From a phage, in the sequence record PX880101.1: a DNA stretch of 64,000 nt, one strand, 5' to 3'. The position numbers and the translations under genes are program-made. Positions within the stretch are counted from its first letter, which is position 1, and the number at the start of each line of letters is the position of its first letter. The notes below the pieces were generated by a model. That model did no database searches, was not told the origin of the DNA, and saw only the letters and a list, made by a program, of their open reading frames with translations. This document shows, one piece after another, positions 3,631 through 40,168 of this stretch.

Positions 3631-3984
3631 GATGAGTACCAACTTCAAGTCCCTGACACACCGAAGTATAAGACTGTGTACACCTTCGACACAATCGAAG
3701 AACTGGAAGCATTTAAGGCAGAGCAGGAGGCCAAACTTCATGTGTTCGACGGTCATAAGTACAAAAAGGCACGCAAGGATGAGGACGGAAACGAAGTGGT
3801 TGACAGAGACGGAAACACGGTGTACGATCCTATCCTGAATGATGACGGAAAGCTTGAACTTATCTGGAGCCCTGTGGGTGAAATGGTGGTGCATTGCTTC
3901 TGGCAAGCTTCTAAAATGATGGGCGTCCCGTTCCAGATCACAGGTGAATACTTGTGTGGTCGTAATTGGGGTGATTGTCACTAA
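3631..3984 (+). CDS. DNA polymerase family A, exon 2 (motif C Asp-Glu through conserved C-terminus)
   Basis: No ATG (only in-frame TTG at 3628); frame starts DEYQLQV, completing YH|DE motif C, and ends GRNWGDCH, like the T7 gp5 and Klenow C-termini. Confidence 0.7.
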   Translation, partial: DEYQLQVPDTPKYKTVYTFDTIEELEAFKAEQEAKLHVFDGHKYKKARKDEDGNEVVDRDGNTVYDPILNDDGKLELIWSPVGEMVVHCFWQASKMMGVPFQITGEYLCGRNWGDCH

Positions 3985-4033
3985 TGTAAACTATCAACAC
4001 ATGGAAGTGTTGTTGAGCAAAGAGGAGACTTTT

Positions 4034-4318
4034 ATGGTAGTAGAACCAACAAAAACATTTACATCCATGACTATCCCTGTTATTATGCAGGTGGAGTGTG
4101 TTCAGGTATCTCAAGTGTGGCCAGGCACTAAAATCCCAACAGGGCCTGATTTCTTTCAGGTTGGGAAAGTGTACAATGTCTGGAAGGCACCAGATTGTCA
4201 CCCTTTCATTAAAGATGACCGTGGAATGCTGTGGTATCTTGGAAATGATTTGACACTGCACCTTGGGAATGCTATTATTGCAGTATTCAGACTTAACAAG
4301 AAGGAGACCGATCAATGA
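4034..4318 (+). CDS. hypothetical protein
   Basis: ATG 6 nt after GAGGAGA; upstream part of the listed ORF 3944-4318 overlaps the polymerase 3' end. Confidence 0.5.
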   Translation: MVVEPTKTFTSMTIPVIMQVECVQVSQVWPGTKIPTGPDFFQVGKVYNVWKAPDCHPFIKDDRGMLWYLGNDLTLHLGNAIIAVFRLNKKETDQ

Positions 4319-4542
4319 CGACTTTGGTTAAAGCTACCTTTGTAGAAGAAAAGATGACAGACATGTCATTCTTTAAAGAAGGAAAGACCTACGAGGTTTA
4401 TTACGATAAAGCTCGTGCAAACAAAATGATTAAAGACGAGGAAGGGGTTGACTGGTATATCTCTCACCTGGCAAACGGTGAGTATCATATCTACGGAACC
4501 ACTTTGCTTGCCAAGTTTGTAGTTGTTGAAGAGGACCTATGA
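4315..4542 (+). CDS. hypothetical protein
   Basis: AAGGAG SD; start overlaps the upstream stop. Confidence 0.55.
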   Translation: MTTLVKATFVEEKMTDMSFFKEGKTYEVYYDKARANKMIKDEEGVDWYISHLANGEYHIYGTTLLAKFVVVEEDL

Positions 4543-4733
4543 AAGTAAAGTATCTTGCTGAAGGTATGAATAGGTATTTTACCCTTGGTGAAGAATATTG
4601 GCCCTTTACAAACAACGGCGATGTCTACGTGAAAGATAATTTCGGCACGCCGTGGTTTCTGCACTCTAATGGGCTGGGATACTCCATTTACTGCGGTGCA
4701 GTGAACAACACAACTCTTGCAGAGTTCGTTTAG
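4539..4733 (+). CDS. hypothetical protein
   Basis: Start overlaps upstream stop (ATGA); SD-like GAGGA. Confidence 0.5.
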   Translation: MKVKYLAEGMNRYFTLGEEYWPFTNNGDVYVKDNFGTPWFLHSNGLGYSIYCGAVNNTTLAEFV

Positions 4734-5191: not shown

Positions 5192-5446
5192 ATGAAAATC
5201 ATGTTGAAACCAGAATGCGTTGCAAACGACCGAGCTTTTAAAGATTGCACACTTGGCGCTACTTATGAAGCAGAGTTTTGTGAGAACCCTTTGGTAAAAG
5301 CCCTTCTGGAAGAAGGGGCCCCTTTATCACAAGAAGAGATTGATGAGCTGGAAAACTCAGCACAGTGCCTTACCTTTAAAGATGATGAAGGAGACTCTGT
5401 CTGGTGCACTGTTAATGAAGTAGTTTTTGTAAAACCTGAACATTAA
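5192..5446 (+). CDS. hypothetical protein, paralogue of 5510-5782
   Basis: AAGGAGA SD; shares the segment RAFKDCT / SAFRDCT with the next gene. Confidence 0.6.
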   Translation: MKIMLKPECVANDRAFKDCTLGATYEAEFCENPLVKALLEEGAPLSQEEIDELENSAQCLTFKDDEGDSVWCTVNEVVFVKPEH

Positions 5447-5449
5447 TAC

Positions 5450-5478
5450 TTGACAACAGTGATGGGGCCTAATATAAT
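5450..5478 (+). promoter_or_regulatory. sigma70-like promoter TTGACA-N17-TATAAT
   Basis: Consensus hexamers with 17-nt spacer; lies inside the listed ORF 5450-5782, so the real start is downstream. Confidence 0.55.
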
Positions 5479-5509
5479 GGCCCTATCAAAACGAAAGGGG
5501 ACCACAGCA

Positions 5510-5782
5510 ATGACCAAACAATATCAACGAATTAAAGCCAAGGTTAAGCCAGACTATCTGGAGAAGGACTCTGCTTTTCGGGACTGCACAGCTGACAAAG
5601 TTTATACAGGGGCCGTCCTGTTGAACGATGAACTTGAAGTAGATATTCTGGGTAAAGAGGCAACTATTAAGGACGACCAAGGCGATTATGTTTGCTGCAC
5701 CACACGTGAGCTAGAAATCTTAGAATACTTCGGTGAAATCTTCACCTCTCTTGATGATTACTTAGATGATGAGGAAGCGTGA
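5510..5782 (+). CDS. hypothetical protein, paralogue of 5192-5446
   Basis: ATG after AAAGGGGA, downstream of the promoter; shared KDCT segment. Confidence 0.55.
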   Translation: MTKQYQRIKAKVKPDYLEKDSAFRDCTADKVYTGAVLLNDELEVDILGKEATIKDDQGDYVCCTTRELEILEYFGEIFTSLDDYLDDEEA

Positions 5783-28377: not shown

Positions 28378-28410
28378 GTAAAAAGAGGGGCCTAAGCCCC
28401 CCTCTTTGTC
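28378..28410 (-). terminator. Rho-independent terminator (minus strand)
   Basis: Minus-strand AGAGGGGGGC-TTAG-GCCCCTCT followed by TTTTTAC. Confidence 0.55.
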
Positions 28411-29505: not shown

Positions 29506-29793
29506 TCATAGTGCCTCTAAGATTTCATATCCTTCGGGTCGGAATACAAGCCACTCCGTGGCTCCGTTTGGTCGATACGCTTTATACAGAACAACCTGGT
29601 CTCGGCACATGCACATGGCTACATAGTTTTCATCCACACCTGCAGCCTGCATTGCATCTTCTTCTCCGGCAACTGCTTTGCTTACAACTTCCTTGGTAGG
29701 CAGGTGTGCGATCAGCTCGTCACCATCATTAATTCCAAAATGGCTGAGTTCGCCGTTGGTATCTTTAATCTTAATCTTAACCAGATCTTTCAT
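29506..29793 (-). CDS. hypothetical small acidic protein (tandem family member)
   Basis: MKDLVKIKIK N-terminus, acidic C-terminus; ATGA coupling. Confidence 0.5.
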   Translation of the reverse strand: MKDLVKIKIKDTNGELSHFGINDGDELIAHLPTKEVVSKAVAGEEDAMQAAGVDENYVAMCMCRDQVVLYKAYRPNGATEWLVFRPEGYEILEAL

Positions 29794-30122
29794 TAGTCTT
29801 CCCCCAGGTTCAAAGGTCCTAAGATTTCATATGCCAGATTAGAAGTTACAAGAGGGTCTTCTGCGTCTTTAGTATTATACCACCCGTGAATAACCAGAGT
29901 CCCACTTTGTTTCATGTCCAACTGGAACTCTTCTGCCGTTTCCTCATCCAGCTCCAAGATTTCCATAAGGTATTTGATGTTAGGGAGGTATGCAGCTGTT
30001 ACAGTCCCCTCTACCAGACCTTCAGGCCAACCTACATCTGGATGACAAGTAGGAACCAGGTTGGTCAGCTTAATGGTGTACGCTTTTTCTGCACGAGCCT
30101 TCAGTAACGGGTCAATCTTCAT
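29793..30122 (-). CDS. hypothetical small acidic protein (tandem family member)
   Basis: ORF; coupled starts and stops. Confidence 0.5.
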   Translation of the reverse strand: MKIDPLLKARAEKAYTIKLTNLVPTCHPDVGWPEGLVEGTVTAAYLPNIKYLMEILELDEETAEEFQLDMKQSGTLVIHGWYNTKDAEDPLVTSNLAYEILGPLNLGED

Positions 30123-30472
30123 TATTCGTCCTCCTCTTCGGTACCTGCTTCCAGTAATAAGTTAAGAATATCTTCTGCACAAGGCTCATAGAACTCTTGG
30201 CCTTCATTATCGATGATTTTATAGTCATCTCCACGAATAATCAGGGGATCACTCTCAAAATTATCGAGACCTTTAACAACGACAACACGATCGATTGCCA
30301 TCATTGTAAGAACTTTATCGACATCTTCCTCTGCTACACCATACTGCAGCAGAATGTCTTTGGTAGGAGGAACAGCATCCACCACAACACCGTTACCAAA
30401 ACCTTCCGGGAGTTTAGCTAAAATATCTTCCGGAACCACATTCACATCAAAACCAGTAATTTCTACTTTCAT
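30122..30472 (-). CDS. hypothetical small acidic protein (N-terminus MKVEITG)
   Basis: ORF; acidic C-terminus EEEDE. Confidence 0.5.
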   Translation of the reverse strand: MKVEITGFDVNVVPEDILAKLPEGFGNGVVVDAVPPTKDILLQYGVAEEDVDKVLTMMAIDRVVVVKGLDNFESDPLIIRGDDYKIIDNEGQEFYEPCAEDILNLLLEAGTEEEDE

Positions 30473-30733
30473 TTACAGCACCTCTTCGTCAACTACTTCA
30501 TAAAAATGGCTTGGGATTGCAATAGCGTTCTCACCTTCACCCAAGAACACTGTCCCACTAACGATTAACATTAGAAGAACGTCTGCGATACCTTCCTCGG
30601 GGACGTTGCCAAAACCTTTGATCAGCTCGTAGGTTGGAATATTTACCTCTAAGATGTCACCATCTTTAGAACGGAAATCAACACCGTCCTGAATCTCTGC
30701 CGTTTCAAGGTTTTTCAATTTAATCTTCATCAA
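30473..30733 (-). CDS. hypothetical small acidic protein (tandem family member)
   Basis: MMKIKLKNL N-terminus; C-terminus VVDEEVL. Confidence 0.5.
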   Translation of the reverse strand: MMKIKLKNLETAEIQDGVDFRSKDGDILEVNIPTYELIKGFGNVPEEGIADVLLMLIVSGTVFLGEGENAIAIPSHFYEVVDEEVL

Positions 30734-30809
30734 TCGGTCTCCTGTCTTGTTAAGATGAAGGTATTATTTCACACAGGGTTGGCGTTGTCAACACCTGTGT
30801 GCAAGAAAA

Positions 30810-31205
30810 TTACTGAAACAGTGCAGATAAATTACCTTCTGGTGGGAACTTATCTGCCAAAAACGGTGTTAGCACAGTAGCCTTCTGAAGATCTGGGGTC
30901 CACTCGTTGTTCAGAACATCCCAGTAGTACGCAATATTGCTGTGTGGGTGCCGCATTACGAACTTTTTCCCTTCGTAGTCATCTGAAACCTCTACAGAAG
31001 AAATAACAACAGAATCTTCAAGGGTTTCTTCATAGAAAGATCCACCTTCAAATTTCCAACGAGATGCAAGAGCCCCTGCCTTGAACGCTGCAGATAACGG
31101 ACTGTCGGCAAGAACATACATTTCTTGCACTCTGTCGCTGCGATCTTTGCTTCTTACGTTGTATACAGTATCTGAGCTATACTCAACACGGTATAGGCTT
31201 ACCAT
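30810..31205 (-). CDS. hypothetical protein, paralogue of 33017-33415
   Basis: Shared segments HP.S...YW....W.P...A..L. Confidence 0.55.
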   Translation of the reverse strand: MVSLYRVEYSSDTVYNVRSKDRSDRVQEMYVLADSPLSAAFKAGALASRWKFEGGSFYEETLEDSVVISSVEVSDDYEGKKFVMRHPHSNIAYYWDVLNNEWTPDLQKATVLTPFLADKFPPEGNLSALFQ

Positions 31206-31537
31206 TACCGCACCTCCTCAATAACTTCCACATCTGAACCTACCACAAATGCAAAAGGACAGGTTTCATGAAAGATATCCGGATCGCCGCCAAGCTTGCT
31301 AACAATTTCTCCACCACTAATAAACACAAGCTCACCGATATTCATCAGATTGCTGAAATAGTACCCATAATGATTAAAGAATGCAGCAGGGTCAGGTAGA
31401 CTAGTAGCCTCAAGCACTACATCGGTTGAGGTTACTTTCTTATCATAACCTCTCGCCTTTTGAGATGCAAGATCTGCAGAATCCTCAGGAGACCGGAGAT
31501 GCACAGGAATTGTTTCACCAATAAAGCGTACTTTCAT
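31205..31537 (-). CDS. hypothetical small acidic protein (tandem family member)
   Basis: MKVRFIG N-terminus; C-terminus GSDVEVIEEVR. Confidence 0.5.
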   Translation of the reverse strand: MKVRFIGETIPVHLRSPEDSADLASQKARGYDKKVTSTDVVLEATSLPDPAAFFNHYGYYFSNLMNIGELVFISGGEIVSKLGGDPDIFHETCPFAFVVGSDVEVIEEVR

Positions 31538-31541
31538 ATTA

Positions 31542-31805
31542 TCACCCAACAACCATAGCTTCAAAAGGAGTCATGAACGAATAAACGGCATCATCATCTG
31601 CTTCAGGGAATGCTCCCAAAGACTTCATGTCTGAGCCCTTGACAAATACAAGGTTTTGATCAAAAGCTTCTTGGGGGTCAATCCGATACATATTTCGTAG
31701 AATATCGCTTACCTCCTCATCAAGAGGTGAGTATGCTGTGCACGTTTTTCCGATCAAGCTTTGAGAATCAGGGTAGCCACCTGAAGTTTTAAAATAAACA
31801 ATCAT
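31542..31805 (-). CDS. hypothetical small acidic protein (tandem family member)
   Basis: ORF in tandem array. Confidence 0.5.
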   Translation of the reverse strand: MIVYFKTSGGYPDSQSLIGKTCTAYSPLDEEVSDILRNMYRIDPQEAFDQNLVFVKGSDMKSLGAFPEADDDAVYSFMTPFEAMVVG

Positions 31806-31896
31806 ATAGTATCACCTCTGGTAAGAGATTGGGATTCCTTTCCCATAAATAATTACAAATCTTCCTTAGCGAGGAAGTATGCTAATCCAAGCAGGA

Positions 31897-32166
31897 TTAT
31901 TCCTCTACAATCTCATACACATCAGGAGTTACAATCAACTCTTCTCCATTACCAGGTGCAACAAACACCACCAAACCCTCAGGTGTGTGCTTTTTAGCCA
32001 TCTCGATAACATCTTCTCGCAGAGCTGGCTCCATCAGATCAAAACCTTCACCCAGGGCATCACGAACCACCTTCATATAGTCCACTGGTTGTGCTTCAAC
32101 AATCATGCCTTCAACCAGACCACAATTTTTGTCTGCCAGCTCAGTTTTGAATAATTTAATTTTCAT
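31897..32166 (-). CDS. hypothetical small acidic protein (tandem family member)
   Basis: MKIKLFK N-terminus; C-terminus VYEIVEE. Confidence 0.5.
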   Translation of the reverse strand: MKIKLFKTELADKNCGLVEGMIVEAQPVDYMKVVRDALGEGFDLMEPALREDVIEMAKKHTPEGLVVFVAPGNGEELIVTPDVYEIVEE

Positions 32167-32303
32167 TTAGAGGTCTCCTCAATTATTTGATATTAATAGC
32201 CGTAACCTAACACATTAACTACAACTGCGATTGCAAACATAATTTCAAAGCATGCAATCTCTACATTTGGGACTAATTTCTTAATCACACCCATTGTAGC
32301 ACC

Positions 32304-32624
32304 TCATTCTCCAAAGTCAATCTTTACTTTGCCTTTCCCCTTACCTTTCTTTCCACCGCATTTAGCCAGCTGACGTGCTGCAACATCTACCATACGGTCA
32401 GTTGCCTCGTAAGCATCACTGCCTTTAGCCTTGGCAATAACTTCTTTTCCAGAATTGTCAAAAATGAACGCCATAACTTCCTGGTGATCATTTTCAACTT
32501 TTACACTCACACGTGCATAGTTAACAGAGGGATGTAAACGCTCCAGCTTGGACATTTTGCGGGAAATAAAAGATACCATACCTTCTGTGATTTCTACATT
32601 GTTGCCAGTGATTTCAATTTGCAT
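32304..32624 (-). CDS. hpf: Ribosome hibernation promoting factor / RaiA-family protein (HPF homologue)
   Basis: MQIEITGNNVEITEGM...KLE...VKVE...AKAKGSDAYEATDRMVDVAARQLAK aligns along its length with E. coli HPF (recalled as MQLNITGNNVEITEAL...KLEQ...LKVEK...ASAEGQDMYAAIDGLIDKLARQLTK). Confidence 0.75.
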   Translation of the reverse strand: MQIEITGNNVEITEGMVSFISRKMSKLERLHPSVNYARVSVKVENDHQEVMAFIFDNSGKEVIAKAKGSDAYEATDRMVDVAARQLAKCGGKKGKGKGKVKIDFGE

Positions 32625-32673
32625 AACGTGTTCCTTTTAAGGAAGAGGGAATAACTATCTCTCTTTGAAAACA

Positions 32674-32702
32674 ATGATACTAAATCTGAAGCGTTGTGTC
32701 AA
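32674..32702 (-). promoter_or_regulatory. sigma70-like promoter TTGACA-N17-TATCAT driving hpf (minus strand)
   Basis: Minus-strand hexamers with 17-nt spacer, about 50 nt upstream of the hpf ATG. Confidence 0.55.
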
Positions 32703-32708
32703 CAGTTT

Positions 32709-32999
32709 TTACAGCTTGTTGTCGATAGTTTTTAAAATATCCACAGCAAGATCTGCCATTTTTCGAACATACTCTGCAAACTCAACAGGATCCTTGATCA
32801 AAGAATTCACAGGGTCGTACCCTAGAGCGTTTAAAATGGCTGCAGCATCTACAACCTTCTCATCATTTGCGAAGATCTCTCCGTCAAACTTGTAGGTCCA
32901 TTTTGAGTCAACCTTAGCAGAGCAGGGTTTGTCCATGCTTGTTACACCATCGTCTTTAAACTCTCCTGCGTTATCAATATTTAGAATTAAATCCATCAT
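32709..32999 (-). CDS. hypothetical protein
   Basis: ORF. Confidence 0.5.
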   Translation of the reverse strand: MMDLILNIDNAGEFKDDGVTSMDKPCSAKVDSKWTYKFDGEIFANDEKVVDAAAILNALGYDPVNSLIKDPVEFAEYVRKMADLAVDILKTIDNKL

Positions 33000-33016
33000 G
33001 GTGACACCTCACTGTT

Positions 33017-33415
33017 TCAGTTTAGCTTTTCTTCAACAACCCCATAACTTGGGGCAGAGTCAAGAGCTTTCTGGTTTAAAAGTGGCGTAGCAGAATCTGC
33101 AAACGGTGTCCAAGTTTTTGTTCTGGCATTCCAGTAATGCTTCACTCTGGAATCTGGATGCACTATAACAAAAACTTTTTCACTTGTCAACACATTAATT
33201 TCTTCTACACCCTTGCTGATAATTTCTCCGTCATAGCCCCCAGTCTGGTATCCTTCGTACCAGGTTCTTGCATAGGCATAGCCAGCCTGCCAGCATGCAG
33301 CCTCCTCCGAGGTGGAGACTACGTAGAAGTCTTTCTCAAATTCCGGAATACGCCCTTGCTTTACGCTCCAAGCTCCGCGAATTTTCATTGTTACTTTGAA
33401 AAGCTTGTTCTTCAT
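33017..33415 (-). CDS. hypothetical protein, paralogue of 30810-31205
   Basis: Shared segments with 30810-31205. Confidence 0.55.
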   Translation of the reverse strand: MKNKLFKVTMKIRGAWSVKQGRIPEFEKDFYVVSTSEEAACWQAGYAYARTWYEGYQTGGYDGEIISKGVEEINVLTSEKVFVIVHPDSRVKHYWNARTKTWTPFADSATPLLNQKALDSAPSYGVVEEKLN

Positions 33416-33416
33416 A

Positions 33417-33671
33417 CTACCGCTCTACAATCTCTACGTCTGTTCCTACACCGAAGGCATAGTAATGTTCTTCCCCAAAGTAATACTTGGGGACACCCGC
33501 TTTGATCAGATCTAACCCGCGAATAAATACCACACCGTGTGATACAGTGGAATGCTTCTGACGCACAGGATCGTTGTCAGGCAACCATTCAAAGTACACC
33601 GCAGGTACAACCTTTCCCTTCAGGAAGGATTGTCCCAAGTAGACGTTAGAATCAAGAATTTTAACCTTCAT
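33417..33671 (-). CDS. hypothetical small protein (MKVKIL family)
   Basis: MKVKILDSNVYLGQ...GTDVEIVER. Confidence 0.5.
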   Translation of the reverse strand: MKVKILDSNVYLGQSFLKGKVVPAVYFEWLPDNDPVRQKHSTVSHGVVFIRGLDLIKAGVPKYYFGEEHYYAFGVGTDVEIVER

Positions 33672-33888
33672 TCTCGTCCTCCACTATCTCTACATCCTCA
33701 CCAAGGGCAAAGTTGTAGGTCCACTGGCTGTCAAAGCAGTCCTGAGATGCACCAGCGGCAATAAGATCTGCACCTTTTATTTTTAAAAGGTCAGGATAAT
33801 CTTCGTTAGGGATAGCGGTAAACACTTTCCCCACTAAGGGCTCCTGACCAATATAGAAGCTTGAATCTAAAACTTTAACTTTCATCAA
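33661..33888 (-). CDS. hypothetical small protein (MKVKVL family)
   Basis: MMKVKVLDSSFYIGQ...GEDVEIVED. Confidence 0.5.
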   Translation of the reverse strand: MMKVKVLDSSFYIGQEPLVGKVFTAIPNEDYPDLLKIKGADLIAAGASQDCFDSQWTYNFALGEDVEIVEDENEG

Positions 33889-34172
33889 CGGTCTCCCTCA
33901 GGCGGTTGTGGGACGTAAACACTGTTACGAATATCGTCAGCAGTGTAGTAATAAGTGGTTCCAACCCTATCTCGGGCTGCAATGTACTCTGCTATACCAA
34001 CAAGTGCCATTGATTTGGTGGCGTATCTTCCCCACTCGTTAGCTCCCCAGTAGAATTTAGACCAGTAGGGAATAAGACCGAACAAATATACCTTTTGACG
34101 AACTTCCCAGTAAGTGCCTTTTCCGACAAGTTTAAACTCTACTTCACTACTGTTAATCTTTTTCATTATCAA
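33885..34172 (-). CDS. hypothetical protein
   Basis: ATGA coupling. Confidence 0.45.
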   Translation of the reverse strand: MIMKKINSSEVEFKLVGKGTYWEVRQKVYLFGLIPYWSKFYWGANEWGRYATKSMALVGIAEYIAARDRVGTTYYYTADDIRNSVYVPQPPEGDR

Positions 34173-34465
34173 TCTCCCTCTACCGTGGTCGGATTGTCAG
34201 TAAGAAATTGAGCATTGGCTGGAGGCACGCCTGACATTTTCCACACAACCATAAGTTTATAACCAGGCACTCTATTAAGTGCAGATCGAGTAGAGTTTGT
34301 GCACGTATACTTTCGCTTTCCAAACCCGTTCTCCATCATAATCCAGTACCCAGTATCTTTGTCACCAGGTATCGGTAGACCACCTTCATCAACCCACTGA
34401 ATTGACCACGGCACGATGGCTACAGCTTTATATTTAAACTTTTTAAACCACTCAAAAAGTTTCAT
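34169..34465 (-). CDS. hypothetical protein
   Basis: ORF. Confidence 0.45.
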   Translation of the reverse strand: MKLFEWFKKFKYKAVAIVPWSIQWVDEGGLPIPGDKDTGYWIMMENGFGKRKYTCTNSTRSALNRVPGYKLMVVWKMSGVPPANAQFLTDNPTTVEGD

Positions 34466-34560
34466 AATTCAGCCCCGCATAGACATAATCACTATAAACA
34501 GGCAAACAATGAATCCGAATGCCACGCCACCCATAAACGTTAATATTGATGCAATCATAG

Positions 34561-34746
34561 TCAATCAGCCTCGCCTGGCAACTCTTCTACCTTAACATGC
34601 CGAAAAGTGTTACCGTAATGGTTGATCCATGACATCAGCTCACTTTCTTGCTCTTCCTCTGGGATGAACTCTCGAATACTGACAAGTTTTAAGAAAACCC
34701 AATCACAATCTGCACCCATTCTACCAGACAGACAATAGTGCTTCAT
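34561..34746 (-). CDS. hypothetical protein (start uncertain)
   Basis: Internal ATG after GGAGGG. Confidence 0.35.
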   Translation of the reverse strand: MKHYCLSGRMGADCDWVFLKLVSIREFIPEEEQESELMSWINHYGNTFRHVKVEELPGEAD

Positions 34747-34765
34747 AAAAACCCTCCCGCCCGGT

Positions 34766-34960
34766 TTAGAATATTGCTTCTTCCATTGCGCCTGAGAGCA
34801 ACAAAGAGGCAATCTGGCTAACATTCATCTCAGACTCTACTTCCTCCCCTTTGAAAGGTTCGCGGCAGAATAGGACTGTTTCAGGACTTTTACTTCGAAC
34901 AATATAATACAAATCATTCAATGTGTTGTAGTAATAAGTGTTAAAACGTAAGTTTTTCAT
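34766..34960 (-). CDS. hypothetical protein
   Basis: ORF. Confidence 0.4.
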   Translation of the reverse strand: MKNLRFNTYYYNTLNDLYYIVRSKSPETVLFCREPFKGEEVESEMNVSQIASLLLSGAMEEAIF

Positions 34961-35244
34961 TTTCTAGTCCCCTTCTTAGATTTTTGTGCAGAAACGCTTT
35001 CTGCAATACGAGACAGGCGTTCTTCTGAAGCTTTACCTATCCCAGGTTTCTTGAGCGGGTTATCTTTATGACCGCAATCCAATTGGATATTGGATACCTC
35101 CCCAATCTTGTAAGTCAATTCTAGCAAAAGGTTGTCGTCCTTGTCAAATGTTTTTACGATAAATTTTTTATCGTTCTCCTGAACTTCATATCTGGTACCT
35201 GCAGTATACAGCATGGTGCCATCAGCATAGGATATCCAGATCAT
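34957..35244 (-). CDS. hypothetical protein
   Basis: ATGA coupling. Confidence 0.45.
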   Translation of the reverse strand: MIWISYADGTMLYTAGTRYEVQENDKKFIVKTFDKDDNLLLELTYKIGEVSNIQLDCGHKDNPLKKPGIGKASEERLSRIAESVSAQKSKKGTRK

Positions 35245-35588
35245 TGAGCCTCCTTTTGCTGCAACAGCATTAACTCTTTGTTAGAGATCTTTACTGCTGT
35301 TTTTATTGTTCCATCTTCACGAAACCACGACCAGAACTCTACAGTGTCACCACTATCAAGTAAAGCATACCCATGGTAAAAATCTTTGTCCTTAGACAGT
35401 TTCTCATCGATATCTGCATCGACACATTCGTGATCCATAGCATTTTGCCTGAACGCATCGGTTATGCCAATGCACGCCTTGCTCTCAAGACTGGTATATC
35501 CGATATCTTTTAATTCAGTTTCCCAAGTCCAGTACCCTATAAAAGCTAAAACAGCTACCCACAGTAATAACGTTTTAATCTTTGGCAT
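35241..35588 (-). CDS. hypothetical protein with N-terminal signal anchor
   Basis: MPKIKTLLLWVAVLAFIGYW hydrophobic N-terminus. Confidence 0.5.
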   Translation of the reverse strand: MPKIKTLLLWVAVLAFIGYWTWETELKDIGYTSLESKACIGITDAFRQNAMDHECVDADIDEKLSKDKDFYHGYALLDSGDTVEFWSWFREDGTIKTAVKISNKELMLLQQKEAQ

Positions 35589-35650
35589 TCTCTCTACCTC
35601 TTTCTTAGTTTATTTCACTATGGCACATCCTTTGTGCCATATCTCAACTA

Positions 35651-36121
35651 CTACTTAAATAGTAGTTCAAAATAGTGCAAAATTAACAGAAGTTGAACTA
35701 CACCTAGTGCAACGGCGAGTATGTTAATCTTAGAATCGAAAAACTTCTTAACTTTTACTCTAAAAGGTTCCTTAATGTCCTTTACGATCCTATCTATAGA
35801 TGACCTCATATCCCTGATTACCATCCTGAACATTAAAGACGGATGCTCCCCCATCTCTGTAACGGAATCGAAAACATACTCTCTTCGGTCATAAGGGCCG
35901 CCAGCTCTGCGTATTAACCTCTCCACAGAGACCTCGAACGTCACACCTGTAACGTAATCATCTATAACAAGTCGTGACGGGTCTTTACCTTTACTATCAA
36001 GAGGTATCAAAGTTATCTTTCCAGATTTTGTTAAAATTTCCCCTTTTTCAAGCAAGGTGTACCAATGCTCTCTGCCAAGACTGTTGAGGCACGTTTTTAC
36101 ATATTTAACAAACATCGTCAC
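35651..36121 (-). CDS. hypothetical protein with C-terminal TM helix
   Basis: Hydrophobic C-terminus. Confidence 0.5.
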   Translation of the reverse strand: MTMFVKYVKTCLNSLGREHWYTLLEKGEILTKSGKITLIPLDSKGKDPSRLVIDDYVTGVTFEVSVERLIRRAGGPYDRREYVFDSVTEMGEHPSLMFRMVIRDMRSSIDRIVKDIKEPFRVKVKKFFDSKINILAVALGVVQLLLILHYFELLFK

Positions 36122-36303
36122 CCCTCATCGCACGTCTGATATAACCACTCTATAAAATCTTGATACCATTCGCCCTCTGAGCGCTCCGTAGGCCAATAAT
36201 CTTCACCCTCTCGTGCATTAAAATCTGAGTATTCAACTTTCCACTCCTTTACCAGCTCGTGGAGAAGGTTTTCAGCCTGCTCTAAAGATTTATTTTTTAC
36301 CAT
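36118..36303 (-). CDS. hypothetical protein
   Basis: ATG after AAGGAGA. Confidence 0.4.
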   Translation of the reverse strand: MVKNKSLEQAENLLHELVKEWKVEYSDFNAREGEDYWPTERSEGEWYQDFIEWLYQTCDEG

Positions 36304-36522
36304 TGCTGTCTCCTTTTTCAAGATAGTTATACATCAGAACTGCACCACCTAAGATGGCTACCAGTAACAATATCCCAGATAGCATCTCAATAAACATGGC
36401 TTGAAACACTGGAAGGTCTCCCTAAATTAACGCACCATTTTAAATACATGCTCTTTTCCCATAAAGGTGCCTGGCTAAGATCTGCGTAGAACGCAATCTC
36501 TTTAAGAACAGTATAGATAGTT

Positions 36523-36750
36523 TTAGGTGCGGTCTCCATCCCTACTCTCCTTCCTGATATTCTTGTAGTAATCAACTAGGCACATTATTACGATGAAGAT
36601 AACAACAGGCCAAAAAGGTGCAGCAGTGATGATGGTGATAAAATCATCAAACTTCACCCTTCGTCTGGACACGATGCATACACCTGTCAAGAATACCGCT
36701 GTTATAACGGACATTACCAGGTAACCTATTAGCACAACATTTATACTCAT
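36523..36750 (-). CDS. hypothetical membrane protein (two TM helices)
   Basis: Hydrophobic. Confidence 0.45.
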   Translation of the reverse strand: MSINVVLIGYLVMSVITAVFLTGVCIVSRRRVKFDDFITIITAAPFWPVVIFIVIMCLVDYYKNIRKESRDGDRT

Positions 36751-36780
36751 TGGTCCTCCCTTTGTAGGTTAAATTGTATA

Positions 36781-37314
36781 CTACAAATGGTCGCTGAGGG
36801 TGTCAAGAAAATTATCCCGTTCTTTCTCAGAGTTTTCATGTGTGTAGCTGAAAAACATATCGAGAATAACCTTATTGATATATTCCAGCTCCTCTGTGTT
36901 CAGATGCTTAGCAGGATCTACAATGACATCCCAAATATCATACAGACCACACTCATGATACCCATAACGCCACTCAATTGTCAAGCTGAGCGGCAAATCT
37001 TTACCTTCACAAACAACCTTCCATCTACATATGTTGGTATCTGGTCGTACCTGTGCACGGTACACCTGCACAAAATCCAATTTGAATTTGAGGTACTCGT
37101 CATACAATTTAAGCACAAAGCTCTCGATTTGTGGAGACACTTTTGCAGCAAACTGTGCGTATTTGTACTTGCACTGGATGATCTTTCTGCGTTTTGCAGT
37201 TAAATTTTTTGCCGCCAGTTGTTCTTCAGTGTATCTCCACCTACGATCAACAAACGCAACAGGGTCTTTGTCCCCATATAGGTCTTCCCAGTTAATCAGA
37301 AGCATACCTGTCAC
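36781..37314 (-). CDS. hypothetical protein
   Basis: ORF. Confidence 0.5.
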   Translation of the reverse strand: MTGMLLINWEDLYGDKDPVAFVDRRWRYTEEQLAAKNLTAKRRKIIQCKYKYAQFAAKVSPQIESFVLKLYDEYLKFKLDFVQVYRAQVRPDTNICRWKVVCEGKDLPLSLTIEWRYGYHECGLYDIWDVIVDPAKHLNTEELEYINKVILDMFFSYTHENSEKERDNFLDTLSDHL

Positions 37315-37544
37315 TCCTCCACAACTTCAAGGCCTTTACCGCCTCGCTCTGGCAGATTACTTAAAGATAGGTAATACATATAATCAGGAGAGATCCTGCC
37401 AGACTCTGCACCTGCAGCTAGTAAATCCTTCCCTTTAACCAGGACAACATTCTCGTTTGCAGATAGCCGTTTTGCTTCCACAATTTTACCAACACAGTCA
37501 ACCAAGGAAGGGTACCCTAAATCTGTAAGAAATTTAACTTTCAT
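37311..37544 (-). CDS. hypothetical small protein (MKVKFL family)
   Basis: MKVKFLTDLGYP...VVLVKGKDLLAAGAES...LEVVEE. Confidence 0.5.
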   Translation of the reverse strand: MKVKFLTDLGYPSLVDCVGKIVEAKRLSANENVVLVKGKDLLAAGAESGRISPDYMYYLSLSNLPERGGKGLEVVEE

Positions 37545-37581: not shown

Positions 37582-37980
37582 TTACTGAACAGAGCGCGGT
37601 GCTGGGAAGGATAACTCTTCTAAAGAGAAGATTTCATTTCCTACCACCCAAGTTGCTGGGTCATCTGGATCAACAGGTTGGATAATCATTACCTCATCCG
37701 CCTCGCACACACGTTTCCCACCCATAGTAGCGTCAGCCACTAACATACGCGGCTCTTCAGAAATGCACAGGTAGCCACCTCGGCCCACTGTTCCTTCCAC
37801 GGGATCCTGCCCTTTGACCACAATGAATACCTTCTCTCCTGTGGCGATATTACTTTTCACACTAACAGTTTGACCAACTTTAGATGTACCGATCTTGGTG
37901 GCTTCAAACATTAAATCCCGAATTACTGTTGCATAGTTGCCGGACACTTTCTTACCTTCTTTAGTAATCTCAATCTTCAT
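37582..37980 (-). CDS. hypothetical protein (N-terminus MKIEITKEG)
   Basis: ORF. Confidence 0.5.
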   Translation of the reverse strand: MKIEITKEGKKVSGNYATVIRDLMFEATKIGTSKVGQTVSVKSNIATGEKVFIVVKGQDPVEGTVGRGGYLCISEEPRMLVADATMGGKRVCEADEVMIIQPVDPDDPATWVVGNEIFSLEELSFPAPRSVQ

Positions 37981-38252: not shown

Positions 38253-38537
38253 CTACCAGGTTACTGTCAAGTAGGCAACCGTATTATTTTTCTCTGGGGA
38301 GATGCCAACAACATCTACCTGCAGACCTCCTGCCCTTAAATCTCCAACAATGTGCGGGAAGTAATCTGAGAGATGCGAGGGTAGATTTATCGAAAATCCG
38401 CACCCCAGAAAGCCTGCTAACGCTTTATTTTGTATCTCCCCTACAATCGCATCATAAATGGAGTTAAGCTCGTCAGGGAGCGTTACAGGACGTTTTAGCG
38501 CTAACTGGTGTAATTTGTCCTTAGCACTCATTTTCAT
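38253..38537 (-). CDS. hypothetical protein
   Basis: ATG overlaps the methyltransferase stop (ATGA). Confidence 0.45.
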   Translation of the reverse strand: MKMSAKDKLHQLALKRPVTLPDELNSIYDAIVGEIQNKALAGFLGCGFSINLPSHLSDYFPHIVGDLRAGGLQVDVVGISPEKNNTVAYLTVTW

Positions 38538-39067
38538 TTCAGGTCTACCTCTGGTGGTGCCAACCACATAAATGGCGGCAAGCCTAAACGGTTTTTCTTA
38601 TCCCACACAAAATATGCATATGCTTGCCCGTCAGTTCTGCCATTTGATTGAAAAGATGGACGCTTAGATATTGTGATCACAGTGGTAGGTGCATTATCAA
38701 GCCACCATTCAAATCTGGCTTTGCTTTCCAGAAAATTAAGACGCAAAAGCATAATAACTACGTCAGCATCTTTCAACGCCTTGTCTACAAACTCACGAGC
38801 CAAACTGTATGGTGGGTTGGTGATAATACAGTCAACATGGTTGTATTCTGTATTCAGATAGTCAACACCTTCTTGGATTTCTCCCCATGCAGATCCTAAC
38901 GGCATACGGGAGTAGAACACACCTGAGGCACTATTCCTGCAAGGCTCTAAGTAGGTCCAGTCTTCTGGGAACGGAATAAGGTCATACAGCCCTTCTGCAC
39001 ACCACTCCGGTGTCACATACTCATCGTAGGCGTTACGTTGTTCATCAGGTTTTCGAGCACAAGTCAT
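38534..39067 (-). CDS. DNA methyltransferase (N6-adenine or N4-cytosine type, NPPY motif)
   Basis: IITNPPYSLAREF catalytic motif. Confidence 0.6.
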   Translation of the reverse strand: MTCARKPDEQRNAYDEYVTPEWCAEGLYDLIPFPEDWTYLEPCRNSASGVFYSRMPLGSAWGEIQEGVDYLNTEYNHVDCIITNPPYSLAREFVDKALKDADVVIMLLRLNFLESKARFEWWLDNAPTTVITISKRPSFQSNGRTDGQAYAYFVWDKKNRLGLPPFMWLAPPEVDLK

Positions 39068-39118: not shown

Positions 39119-40168
39119 TTAAGCTTCTTCGACAATCCCTGCACCCAGGATTTTTTCATTGAGCTCTTTTGCTGTTTTAATAATATTGTCCACCAGACGC
39201 TTGCGAGTCTTATCTTTTACCTTAACCTCTTCACCGCCGTTCAGGGTTGTCTTCAATTGGGACAGAATGTCTTGAAGTTCAACGACAGAGAATCGCTGCA
39301 GATCTTCTGAGGTAATCTCGCCTAAGGCAATCTTAACGGTCTCACCACTTTCCATCTGCAGGTTCAGGAACACAGTGTGAACATCACCTTTCGAACCACC
39401 CGCTTTTGCAGATTCAACAGCATGAACTAGCTCATCTAAAGAGGTGCACTGGTGAATCTCCGGAAGACCTGCTTCACCTAGCACACCTTCTTCATCACCT
39501 TTTGCCAAAAGCTTTTTAGGTTTTTGTCCGTTCTGGATGCGTTGTATGTTGCCTTCATCCAGAATGATAGCTCCAGTTCGAGCTGCCAGCTCCTCTCCGT
39601 CCAACCACACTTCGCCACCAGCTGTGATGGATGCGATCTCATCTTCTGTCAGCACCCAACCGTAGTATTTTTCGATCAGGCGTTCGAAACGTTTTTTCCA
39701 GTAGCTGACCTGAGTATTCATGTTCACACCATTGCCATAAGTGCCGCCTTGATAGTAGTGGAACATAAACTCTGTGTCCGGAGCCACAGTGCGTTCTTTG
39801 CAACCCAGCCATAGGATTGTTCCAGCAGAGCAGCACATCCCTTCAGCATGTGCAACAACGCTTGCCTGAGACTCGCGGAATGCCTGTAGATAAGCCATTG
39901 CAATGTGCACGCAACCCCCAGGGCTATTGATGATCACACGAATGCTTTCTTCCGGCTGAGCCATACGGATCGTCTGCAGACGAGACATATGATCCTGCAG
40001 GTCCTCCAAATCGTCGATATAAAGAACGTGGTCAACAACAGGTGTTGGGTAGCTGTATGTTTCCATAATACCACCCGGCATACCAAACATTTTATTACTC
40101 ATAGGTTCGAAACCGTTCTGTTTTTCTTTCATGCCGTGTACCATGGTGCTGCGAGGTGTTAAATTCAT
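39119..40168 (-). CDS. ClpP/S14-family serine protease with about 150-aa C-terminal extension
   Basis: VINSPGGCVHIAMAYL and GMCCSAGTIL (active-site Ser context). Confidence 0.65.
   Translation of the reverse strand: MNLTPRSTMVHGMKEKQNGFEPMSNKMFGMPGGIMETYSYPTPVVDHVLYIDDLEDLQDHMSRLQTIRMAQPEESIRVIINSPGGCVHIAMAYLQAFRESQASVVAHAEGMCCSAGTILWLGCKERTVAPDTEFMFHYYQGGTYGNGVNMNTQVSYWKKRFERLIEKYYGWVLTEDEIASITAGGEVWLDGEELAARTGAIILDEGNIQRIQNGQKPKKLLAKGDEEGVLGEAGLPEIHQCTSLDELVHAVESAKAGGSKGDVHTVFLNLQMESGETVKIALGEITSEDLQRFSVVELQDILSQLKTTLNGGEEVKVKDKTRKRLVDNIIKTAKELNEKILGAGIVEEA

Follow-up and report, generated by a model that had tools for sequence, protein, structure and literature searches.

Three families of small paralogous genes, two with predicted folds, in the non-structural region of an rV5-like Vequintavirus

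Large phages are well known to carry blocks of small paralogous accessory genes, temperate phages typically have host-modulating genes in their accessory slots, and the SH3-like fold class is common. Small acidic phage proteins such as T7 Gp2 and the DNA-mimic anti-restriction protein Ocr inhibit host proteins, and they serve here as a lead only. Phages related to rV5 are among the commonest Escherichia coli phage isolates. They are considered for use in therapy and biocontrol, although a function has been assigned to fewer than half of their genes. Here, we describe positions 29506 to 37544 of a 64,000-nucleotide (nt) stretch of phage DNA (sequence record PX880101.1; the whole stretch is called the window below). 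An earlier note, made from the sequence alone, had proposed that this 8-kb region is a tandem array of small acidic paralogues. The best match to the region was Escherichia phage rV5_ev146 (99.5% identity), and 122 phage records matched it in all, 115 of which covered at least 80% of its length; the window thus belongs to an rV5-like Vequintavirus. Nearly all genes of the region are labeled "hypothetical protein" in published records. We found that twelve of these hypothetical proteins, from a region with about 27 minus-strand genes, reduce to three families (A, B, and C), and that the fold of two families can be predicted confidently.

The grouping rests on two kinds of comparison. All 31 minus-strand genes between 28.0 and 38.6 kb were aligned all against all by the Smith-Waterman method (465 pairs, with 200 shuffles per pair). 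Eight pairs reached z > 5, and every one of them fell inside a proposed family. Naming genes by their lower coordinate, six of these pairs belonged to family A (33417/33661, z = 22.8; 33661/37311, 11.9; 33417/37311, 8.9; 31205/33417, 8.7; 31205/33661, 8.4; 31542/37311, 6.8), one to family B (30810/33017, 19.0), and one to family C (29506/30122, 6.3). For the 12 top-scoring pairs, which include all of those with z > 5, none of the 200 shuffles equaled the observed score. Alignments no better than shuffled controls, the outcome that the earlier note had named as fatal to its own proposal, were therefore not what we obtained. Iterated hidden Markov model (HMM) searches were then run against all 404 open reading frames (ORFs) of at least 45 amino acids (aa) in the window, and they closed on the five A genes and the five C genes of Table 1. 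Two of the A genes, 31542 and 31205, joined the profile at E values of 4e-5 and 8e-5 and then stood at 6e-32 and 1e-27. Pairwise similarity within family C was weak (single-sequence phmmer E values of 0.015 to 0.2 and, for some pairs, z = 3.4 to 4.6, including 29793/30122 at 4.3). Each C member nevertheless had other C members among its best non-self matches in the 404 ORFs, usually at the top, and the family profiles retrieved the same five orthologues in four further genomes. The two B proteins are 28% identical and share the motif HP.S...YW....WTP. Two other genes with similar starts, 37582-37980 (MKIEIT) and the ribosome hibernation factor gene (MQIEIT), were considered as members and rejected for want of profile support.

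Family A comprises five genes of 74 to 110 aa, family C five of 85 to 116 aa, and family B two of about 131 aa. Together they sum to 3.6 of the 8.0 kb (45%) and lie in three blocks: 37311 alone, 33017-33885, and 29506-32166. Between the blocks lie about 15 unrelated singleton genes and the hibernation factor gene. The contiguous paralogue runs are 33661/33417(/33017), 31542/31205(/30810), and 30473/30122/29793/29506, and 37311 and 31897 are copies set apart, with unrelated genes lying between them and their relatives. Of the 12 family genes, eight begin at a site that overlaps the upstream stop codon or lies within 4 nt of it, and each is preceded by a Shine-Dalgarno sequence. Sigma-70-like promoters within the array, at 32702-32674 and 30791-30763, match P144 and P150 of the rV5 record; the second stands ahead of 30473-30730 with 11 of 12 consensus matches. 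All family C proteins are acidic (isoelectric point [pI] 4.05 to 4.68), as are the A proteins (4.05 to 5.42) apart from 33417 (6.8), so that the pI is 4.0 to 5.4 and the net charge -1 to -21 for all but one of the ten proteins in these two families; of the B proteins, one is acidic and one neutral (33017, 7.8).

Much of the earlier description agrees with this picture. Every gene from 29506 to 37544 is on the minus strand, there are indeed at least two families, the two-copy family had been recognized by its HP.S...YW....W.P motif, the segment KG.DL.AAGA recurs in family A as described, and the claim that most genes are translationally coupled holds as far as close packing goes. Other parts were correct only in part. 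The genes are paralogous, but they are neither all adjacent nor do they fill the 8 kb. There are about ten genes of the MK.K type, as counted, but by sequence they form two families (A and C) rather than one. Acidity is a property of family C and most of family A, but not of 33417 or 33017.

Protein structures were modeled with AlphaFold2. The 33661 protein (family A; alignment of 25 relatives) was modeled with a predicted local distance difference test (pLDDT) score of 90.9 and has strands at residues 2-5, 21-23, 33-37, 56-61, and 65-69, with the DLIAAGA motif on a single short helix (38-43). For family A, the confident prediction is a single-domain, five-strand, SH3-like small beta-barrel; the known fold class probably nearest to it, the SH3-like small barrels, includes SH3 itself, the Spt5/NusG KOW domain, PsaE, and the C-terminal domain of retroviral integrase. 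The model of the 31897 protein (family C; pLDDT 92.2) has strands at residues 2-5, 22-27, 66-69, 76-79, and 84-88 and three helices (30-60) between strands 2 and 3, and family C is accordingly predicted to have the family A strand order with a three-helix insertion. The start motif MK(V/I)K(I/L)L forms strand 1 of the models and the end motif (V/Y)E(I/V)VE(E) forms strand 5; thus, the motifs picked out in the earlier note are structural, and what it had called acidic tails is the last beta-strand of the predicted fold. Among the A and C proteins, no match to Pfam reached a gathering cut-off, SH3, KOW, and Sm included; the sole matches at E ≤ 1 were those of 29506 to LRAT (13.8 bits) and HTH_16 (12.1 bits), far under the cut-off. 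By sequence, A and C are separate families. In a Foldseek search of a viral structure library, the A and C models shared about nine targets, all uncharacterized small phage proteins, including proteins from the T4-like phages RB49, Merlin, and Sf20. Because the target lists overlap, we consider it probable that A and C share one fold, judging from these models, and possible that they share a common origin.

Searches for the families covered 50,697 phage records together with a set of 5.8 billion protein clusters, and this set contained 36 clusters of family A, 53 close clusters of family C, and 6 of family B, and a search without a word filter of 1.84 billion representatives at 50% identity gave 38 clusters of family A. 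Nearly all A, B, and C clusters were on contigs of 120 to 140 kb, i.e., genomes of the Vequintavirus type. Seunavirus EC152 and Mydovirus Mydo share the neighborhood (PhoH, ClpP, and methyltransferase genes followed by many small genes), and no A, B, or C member was present within 20 kb on each side of ClpP in either. Outside the genus, family A occurred as single copies: in E. coli prophages and phages mEp021, mEp013, and mEp554, between the Q antiterminator and holin genes; in prophage-like contigs, in a slot between recombination genes and xis/int; and in phage MagusPhagus and the T4-like Citrobacter phage Merlin. A degenerate DNA pattern for family A found three prophage-like contigs only, with one copy each. 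The window copy nearest to the temperate-phage homologues is 37311, at 41 to 49% identity to the mEp554, mEp013, and mEp021 genes. In metagenomic data the family A domain is also repeated within one chain, twice in P0051 (136 aa) and three times in P0047 (264 aa). The families are thus genus-specific save for the single-copy relatives of A, and the expansion to five A and five C genes is specific to Vequintavirus, since the outgroup loci lack members and other phages have single copies. The rV5 GenBank record likens family B to a protein of Listeria phage A118, a resemblance that we could not reproduce; tblastn at E ≤ 1 returned Vequintavirus records only.

The history of the copies can be followed in L007, a 128-kb Vequintavirus-like metagenome scaffold in ENA with no GenBank isolate close to it. 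Proteins of this block are 29 to 86% identical between L007 and the window, and L007 has the full complement of A and C genes (five of each), one to one with gene order kept. It has a single B copy, the counterpart of 33017 being missing, and an extra gene with PF27050 (Phage_P22_Y8K6) between the B copy and the first C gene. No similarity or repeats at the DNA level were found between paralogue copies of the window. Together with the one-to-one orthologues in L007 and the purifying selection described below, this shows that the duplications are old. A trace of the process that would generate such copies is seen in P0012 (70 aa), a chimera in which the 5' two-thirds is of the 33661 type and the 3' third is of the EmilHeitz-type 33417 allele, with the switch in the DLIAAGA codons. 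It occurs in three assembled contigs and in none of 118 GenBank isolates, and in two of the contigs (L009 and L010, 6001-6213 in each, corresponding to 33417-33885 of the window) it stands in for both genes. P0012 is a direct footprint of unequal crossover between neighboring paralogues. We conclude that the families most likely expanded by tandem duplication, through unequal recombination among neighboring copies, that the copies then diverged to 25 to 42% protein identity, and that each has since been retained as its own orthologue under purifying selection. We hold this descriptive and evolutionary part of our explanation with high confidence. It agrees with the earlier proposal of a lineage-specific expansion by repeated duplication, given the restriction to one genus, the absence beside ClpP in sister genera, and the crossover chimera.

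Recombination may also have acted on whole loci. The segments 33417-33671, 29793-30122, 30473-30730, and 37582-37980 are 77 to 88% identical in DNA to EmilHeitz or rV5, in flanks that are 96 to 100% identical, and the 33417 locus has two alleles (window versus EmilHeitz) of about 77% DNA identity. This locus-specific mosaicism suggests exchange of whole-gene alleles by recombination inside the genus. Two copies differ in length among relatives. In the rV5 reference (L008 10526-10796), the 29506 orthologue is read as two ORFs, gp148 and gp149, owing to a 2-nt indel (288 versus 290 nt), and the 31542 orthologue is truncated in phage V18 (P0036); each case reflects either true pseudogenization or an error in the sequence.

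The earlier note had expected these genes to be rapidly evolving, and it had called for a comparison of copy number across relatives. A full arms-race interpretation would hold that they show fast evolution, diversifying selection, and frequent copy-number turnover, as anti-defence loci do. Small acidic proteins in an accessory block would fit, as would the mosaic loci (33417 alleles at 77% and, against rV5, 29793 and 30473 at 86 to 88% beside neighbors at 96 to 99%), the existence of rare copy-number variants, and the lower conservation in L007 of family C (median identity 47%) than of neighboring singletons (61%), with family A at 57%. However, the ratio of nonsynonymous to synonymous differences (pN/pS; pairwise Nei-Gojobori proportions, pooled against EmilHeitz and rV5) was 0.14 to 0.20 for A, 0 to 0.17 for C (where the comparison with EmilHeitz has only four synonymous differences), and 0 to 0.07 for B, and family values of 0.07 to 0.20 lie near the 0.10 to 0.11 of the neighbors. 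The family genes are real genes under purifying selection. Copy number is also nearly fixed in the approximately 118 isolates compared, with 33661 and 33417 both present in 118 of 118 matching GenBank isolates and both B copies in 116 of 119 records. With the one-to-one set of ten in the deeply divergent L007 and paralogues that lack DNA similarity, these results speak against rapid evolution, and we regard an arms race as unlikely.

One of the rare variants is informative about function. EduardKellenberger, a viable, laboratory-characterized isolate of the BASEL collection, lacks 3.8 kb of the region (Table 1). Lost with this segment are the second and third A copies, the greater part of B copy 1, and about 10 singletons, and the deletion leaves a fusion between the 5' part of the 36781-37314 gene and the 3' end of the B gene 33017-33415. 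At least the middle block is thus dispensable on E. coli K-12. Mass spectrometry of rV5 virions identified 19 proteins, gp1, 27, 30, 32, 33, 36, 37, 41-43, 45, 49, 52, 53, 60, 61, 64, 133, and 228 (PMC3606486), and no A, B, or C orthologue is among these 19, showing that the family proteins are not virion components. The gp133 orthologue sits amid the non-structural small genes of the region, and gp133 was reported as abundant or predominant in rV5 virions by mass spectrometry. It is lost in the deletion as well, and since EduardKellenberger is viable, gp133 is a seemingly dispensable virion component.

We propose, tentatively, that the family proteins are dispensable, non-virion accessory proteins that bind partner proteins. 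They would be made in the cell from host-type sigma-70 promoters, and each would bind a partner protein stoichiometrically rather than act in catalysis or nucleic acid binding. Protein binding is the most plausible activity because these are single-domain small barrels, mostly strongly acidic and without catalytic motifs, with relatives in accessory slots, and nucleic acid binding is disfavored by the low pI of nearly all A and C proteins. That each paralogue has been kept as an orthologue in its own right suggests that the partners differ; each paralogue would probably have a separate target, in the host or in a competitor, and would serve host takeover, counter-defence, or phage-phage competition. 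A host-interaction or anti-defence role is plausible in view of where the genes lie, the size and charge of their products, the absence of these from virions, and dispensability. An anti-restriction role is unlikely, because the BASEL study found Vequintavirinae to be exceptionally sensitive to restriction-modification systems (PMC8594841).

Several points weigh against this proposal. Unlike classic arms-race loci, these genes have a near-fixed copy number and evolve under purifying selection. Dispensability was seen only for one B copy and two A copies, with a laboratory K-12 strain as host, and the timing of expression is suggested by promoter motifs. Sequence searches of Pfam, NCBIfam, PHROGs, and the PDB gave no functional annotation. 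Keyword searches of the papers on the rV5 genome, BASEL, CRISPRi-ART, and mEp021 gave nothing on the family genes (in the CRISPRi-ART paper, only a handful of genes of EdH4, an rV5-like phage, are targeted), and neither did searches on counter-defence and transcriptomes. As to a common ancestry of A and C, profile-profile comparison (hhalign) was not significant, with a probability of 1.8%, or 11% with deeper alignments. Cross-profile ranking gave p = 5e-4 with all ORFs as controls and p = 0.005 to 0.13 with only plausible real small genes as controls, and because of this weakening we do not claim homology of A and C at the sequence level. For our explanation as a whole, families and function together, we estimate a probability of about 0.5. 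A bolder version appears doubtful to us; it would make A and C a single ancient SH3-like scaffold from which ten binders arose, each specific for its own target in host immunity or physiology. If true, it would define a new superfamily of counter-defence or host-takeover proteins, and the single-copy temperate and T4-like relatives would do the same job with one target each.

Next in standing after an arms race, and distinctly improbable, is that the proteins are subunits of a hetero-oligomer, for instance a ring of small barrels like those of Sm or Hfq, with the fixed five A and five C genes reflecting stoichiometry. In favor are the strict conservation of the copy set throughout the genus and in L007 and the membership of Sm-like proteins in the same small-barrel fold class. 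In addition, P0051 and P0047, with two and three family A stretches, give a Rosetta-stone hint of domains that work side by side; such multi-domain fusions could point to hetero-oligomeric assemblies just as well as to the bolder version above. Against this, phages with three or four A copies are viable, and temperate and T4-like phages carry single-copy homologues. We give still less credence to the idea that these are KOW- or Sm-like factors that bind RNA or ribosomes and, along with the neighboring hibernation factor, retune host translation. The hibernation factor gene does lie inside the array, but 9 of the 10 A and C proteins are acidic and negatively charged, and the temperate-phage homologues do not lie beside translation genes. 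Finally, chance or compositional similarity of short acidic ORFs with common start motifs, which the weak C pairs might suggest, is hardly credible given that the shuffles refute it for A and B and that the C members retrieve one another, the family profiles recover the same orthologues in four other genomes, and family alignments yield confident models.

The region is the far end of a long minus-strand, non-structural transcription unit, with a DNA methyltransferase gene (38534-39067) and a ClpP-like protease gene (39119-40168) upstream. The unit also carries nucleotide-metabolism and replication genes (PMC3606486). At 28382-28407, a few genes downstream of the last family gene, a GC-rich hairpin with flanking A and T runs on both strands resembles a bidirectional terminator and matches the rho-independent terminator annotated after rV5 gp153. 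The hibernation factor gene is unrelated to families A, B, and C; it has its own sigma-70-like promoter, the P144-like site described above, and is conserved in L007 at 64% identity. Two further sets of adjacent small paralogues lie on the plus strand. In the first (3944-4318, 4315-4542, and 4539-4733), one pair shares F..GK.Y.V...KD..G..W(Y/F)L (E = 4e-5) and a third copy is possible; in the second (5192-5446 and 5450-5782), the common motif is AF(K/R)DCT...KDD.GD.V.CT (E = 2e-7). Duplication of small genes is thus a general habit of this genome. Among the GenBank records that match the region of this E. coli phage, 18 are named "Campylobacter phage" (host Campylobacter jejuni), two of which, MG065635.1 and MG065653.1, are 97.8% identical to it. 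These records are probably mislabeled or derived from a contaminating coliphage.

TABLE 1 Coordinates of the family genes and of other features of the region
Feature	Position	Strand	Remarks
Family A copy 1	37311-37544	-	77 aa, MKVKFL...GLEVVEE; phrog_5009, E 8e-36
Family A copy 2	33661-33885	-	74 aa; modeled as a five-strand SH3-like beta-barrel
Family A copy 3	33417-33671	-	84 aa; 11-nt overlap with copy 2
Family A copy 4	31542-31805	-	87 aa, MIVYFKTSGGYP...; phrog_13920; weaker match to phrog_5009, E 1e-4
Family A copy 5	31205-31537	-	110 aa from ATG at 31537 (start as in EmilHeitz and rV5 annotation); 20-residue insert behind strand 1
Family B copy 1	33017-33415	-	132 aa; phrog_7379, E 4e-74; cut by EduardKellenberger deletion
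Family B copy 2	30810-31205	-	131 aa; phrog_7379, E 2e-66
Family C copy 1	31897-32166	-	89 aa, MKIKLF...VYEIVEE; profile E 6e-4, then 5e-30; modeled
Family C copy 2	30473-30730	-	85 aa; first gene behind sigma-70-like promoter
Family C copy 3	30122-30472	-	116 aa, net charge -21, pI 4.05, acidic C-terminal extension
Family C copy 4	29793-30122	-	109 aa, N-terminal extension; profile E 0.0085, then 3e-31
Family C copy 5	29506-29793	-	95 aa; rV5 orthologue is gp148/gp149
Ribosome hibernation factor (S30AE/RaiA family)	32304-32624	-	PF02482, E 4e-15, 56.7 bits versus cut-off of 23.7
rV5 gp133 orthologue	35651-36121	-	phrog_7821, virion structural protein; hydrophobic C terminus
Naturally deleted segment	33103-36908		EduardKellenberger (Bas59, MZ501061.1, L015); blastn breakpoints, 15-nt overlap

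Every family gene matches a PHROG end to end (E values of 1e-27 to 1e-76), and the proteins are in this sense already catalogued: A under phrog_5009, 13920, and 13661; B under phrog_7379; and C under phrog_11868, 12359, 12155, 12457, and 12794. All of these PHROGs are labeled "unknown function," and the ten A and C genes are split over eight of them; neither PHROGs nor the rV5 genome paper records the paralogy or the fold. The families are shown here to be genus-specific, constrained by selection, and at least partly dispensable. For screens of host modulation or counter-defence they supply a short, ordered candidate list, with the natural deletion and fusion variants usable as ready-made mutants. 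Nothing is overturned by these results, which offer a clean, testable candidate set rather than a surprise.

We found no match in sequence or fold between the family proteins and inhibitors of the T7 Gp2 or Ocr type; the likeness lies in a length of 70 to 120 aa, strong negative charge, and expression from what would be host-type promoters. The closest parallels are the families of small early or accessory genes that large lytic phages carry and the moron slots found in temperate phages, which the present locus resembles in its same-strand, tightly packed, mostly overlapping small genes that lack known homologues and are dispensable in the laboratory. Unlike those multigene families and slots, however, the families described here have a copy set that is old and almost fixed rather than fluid.

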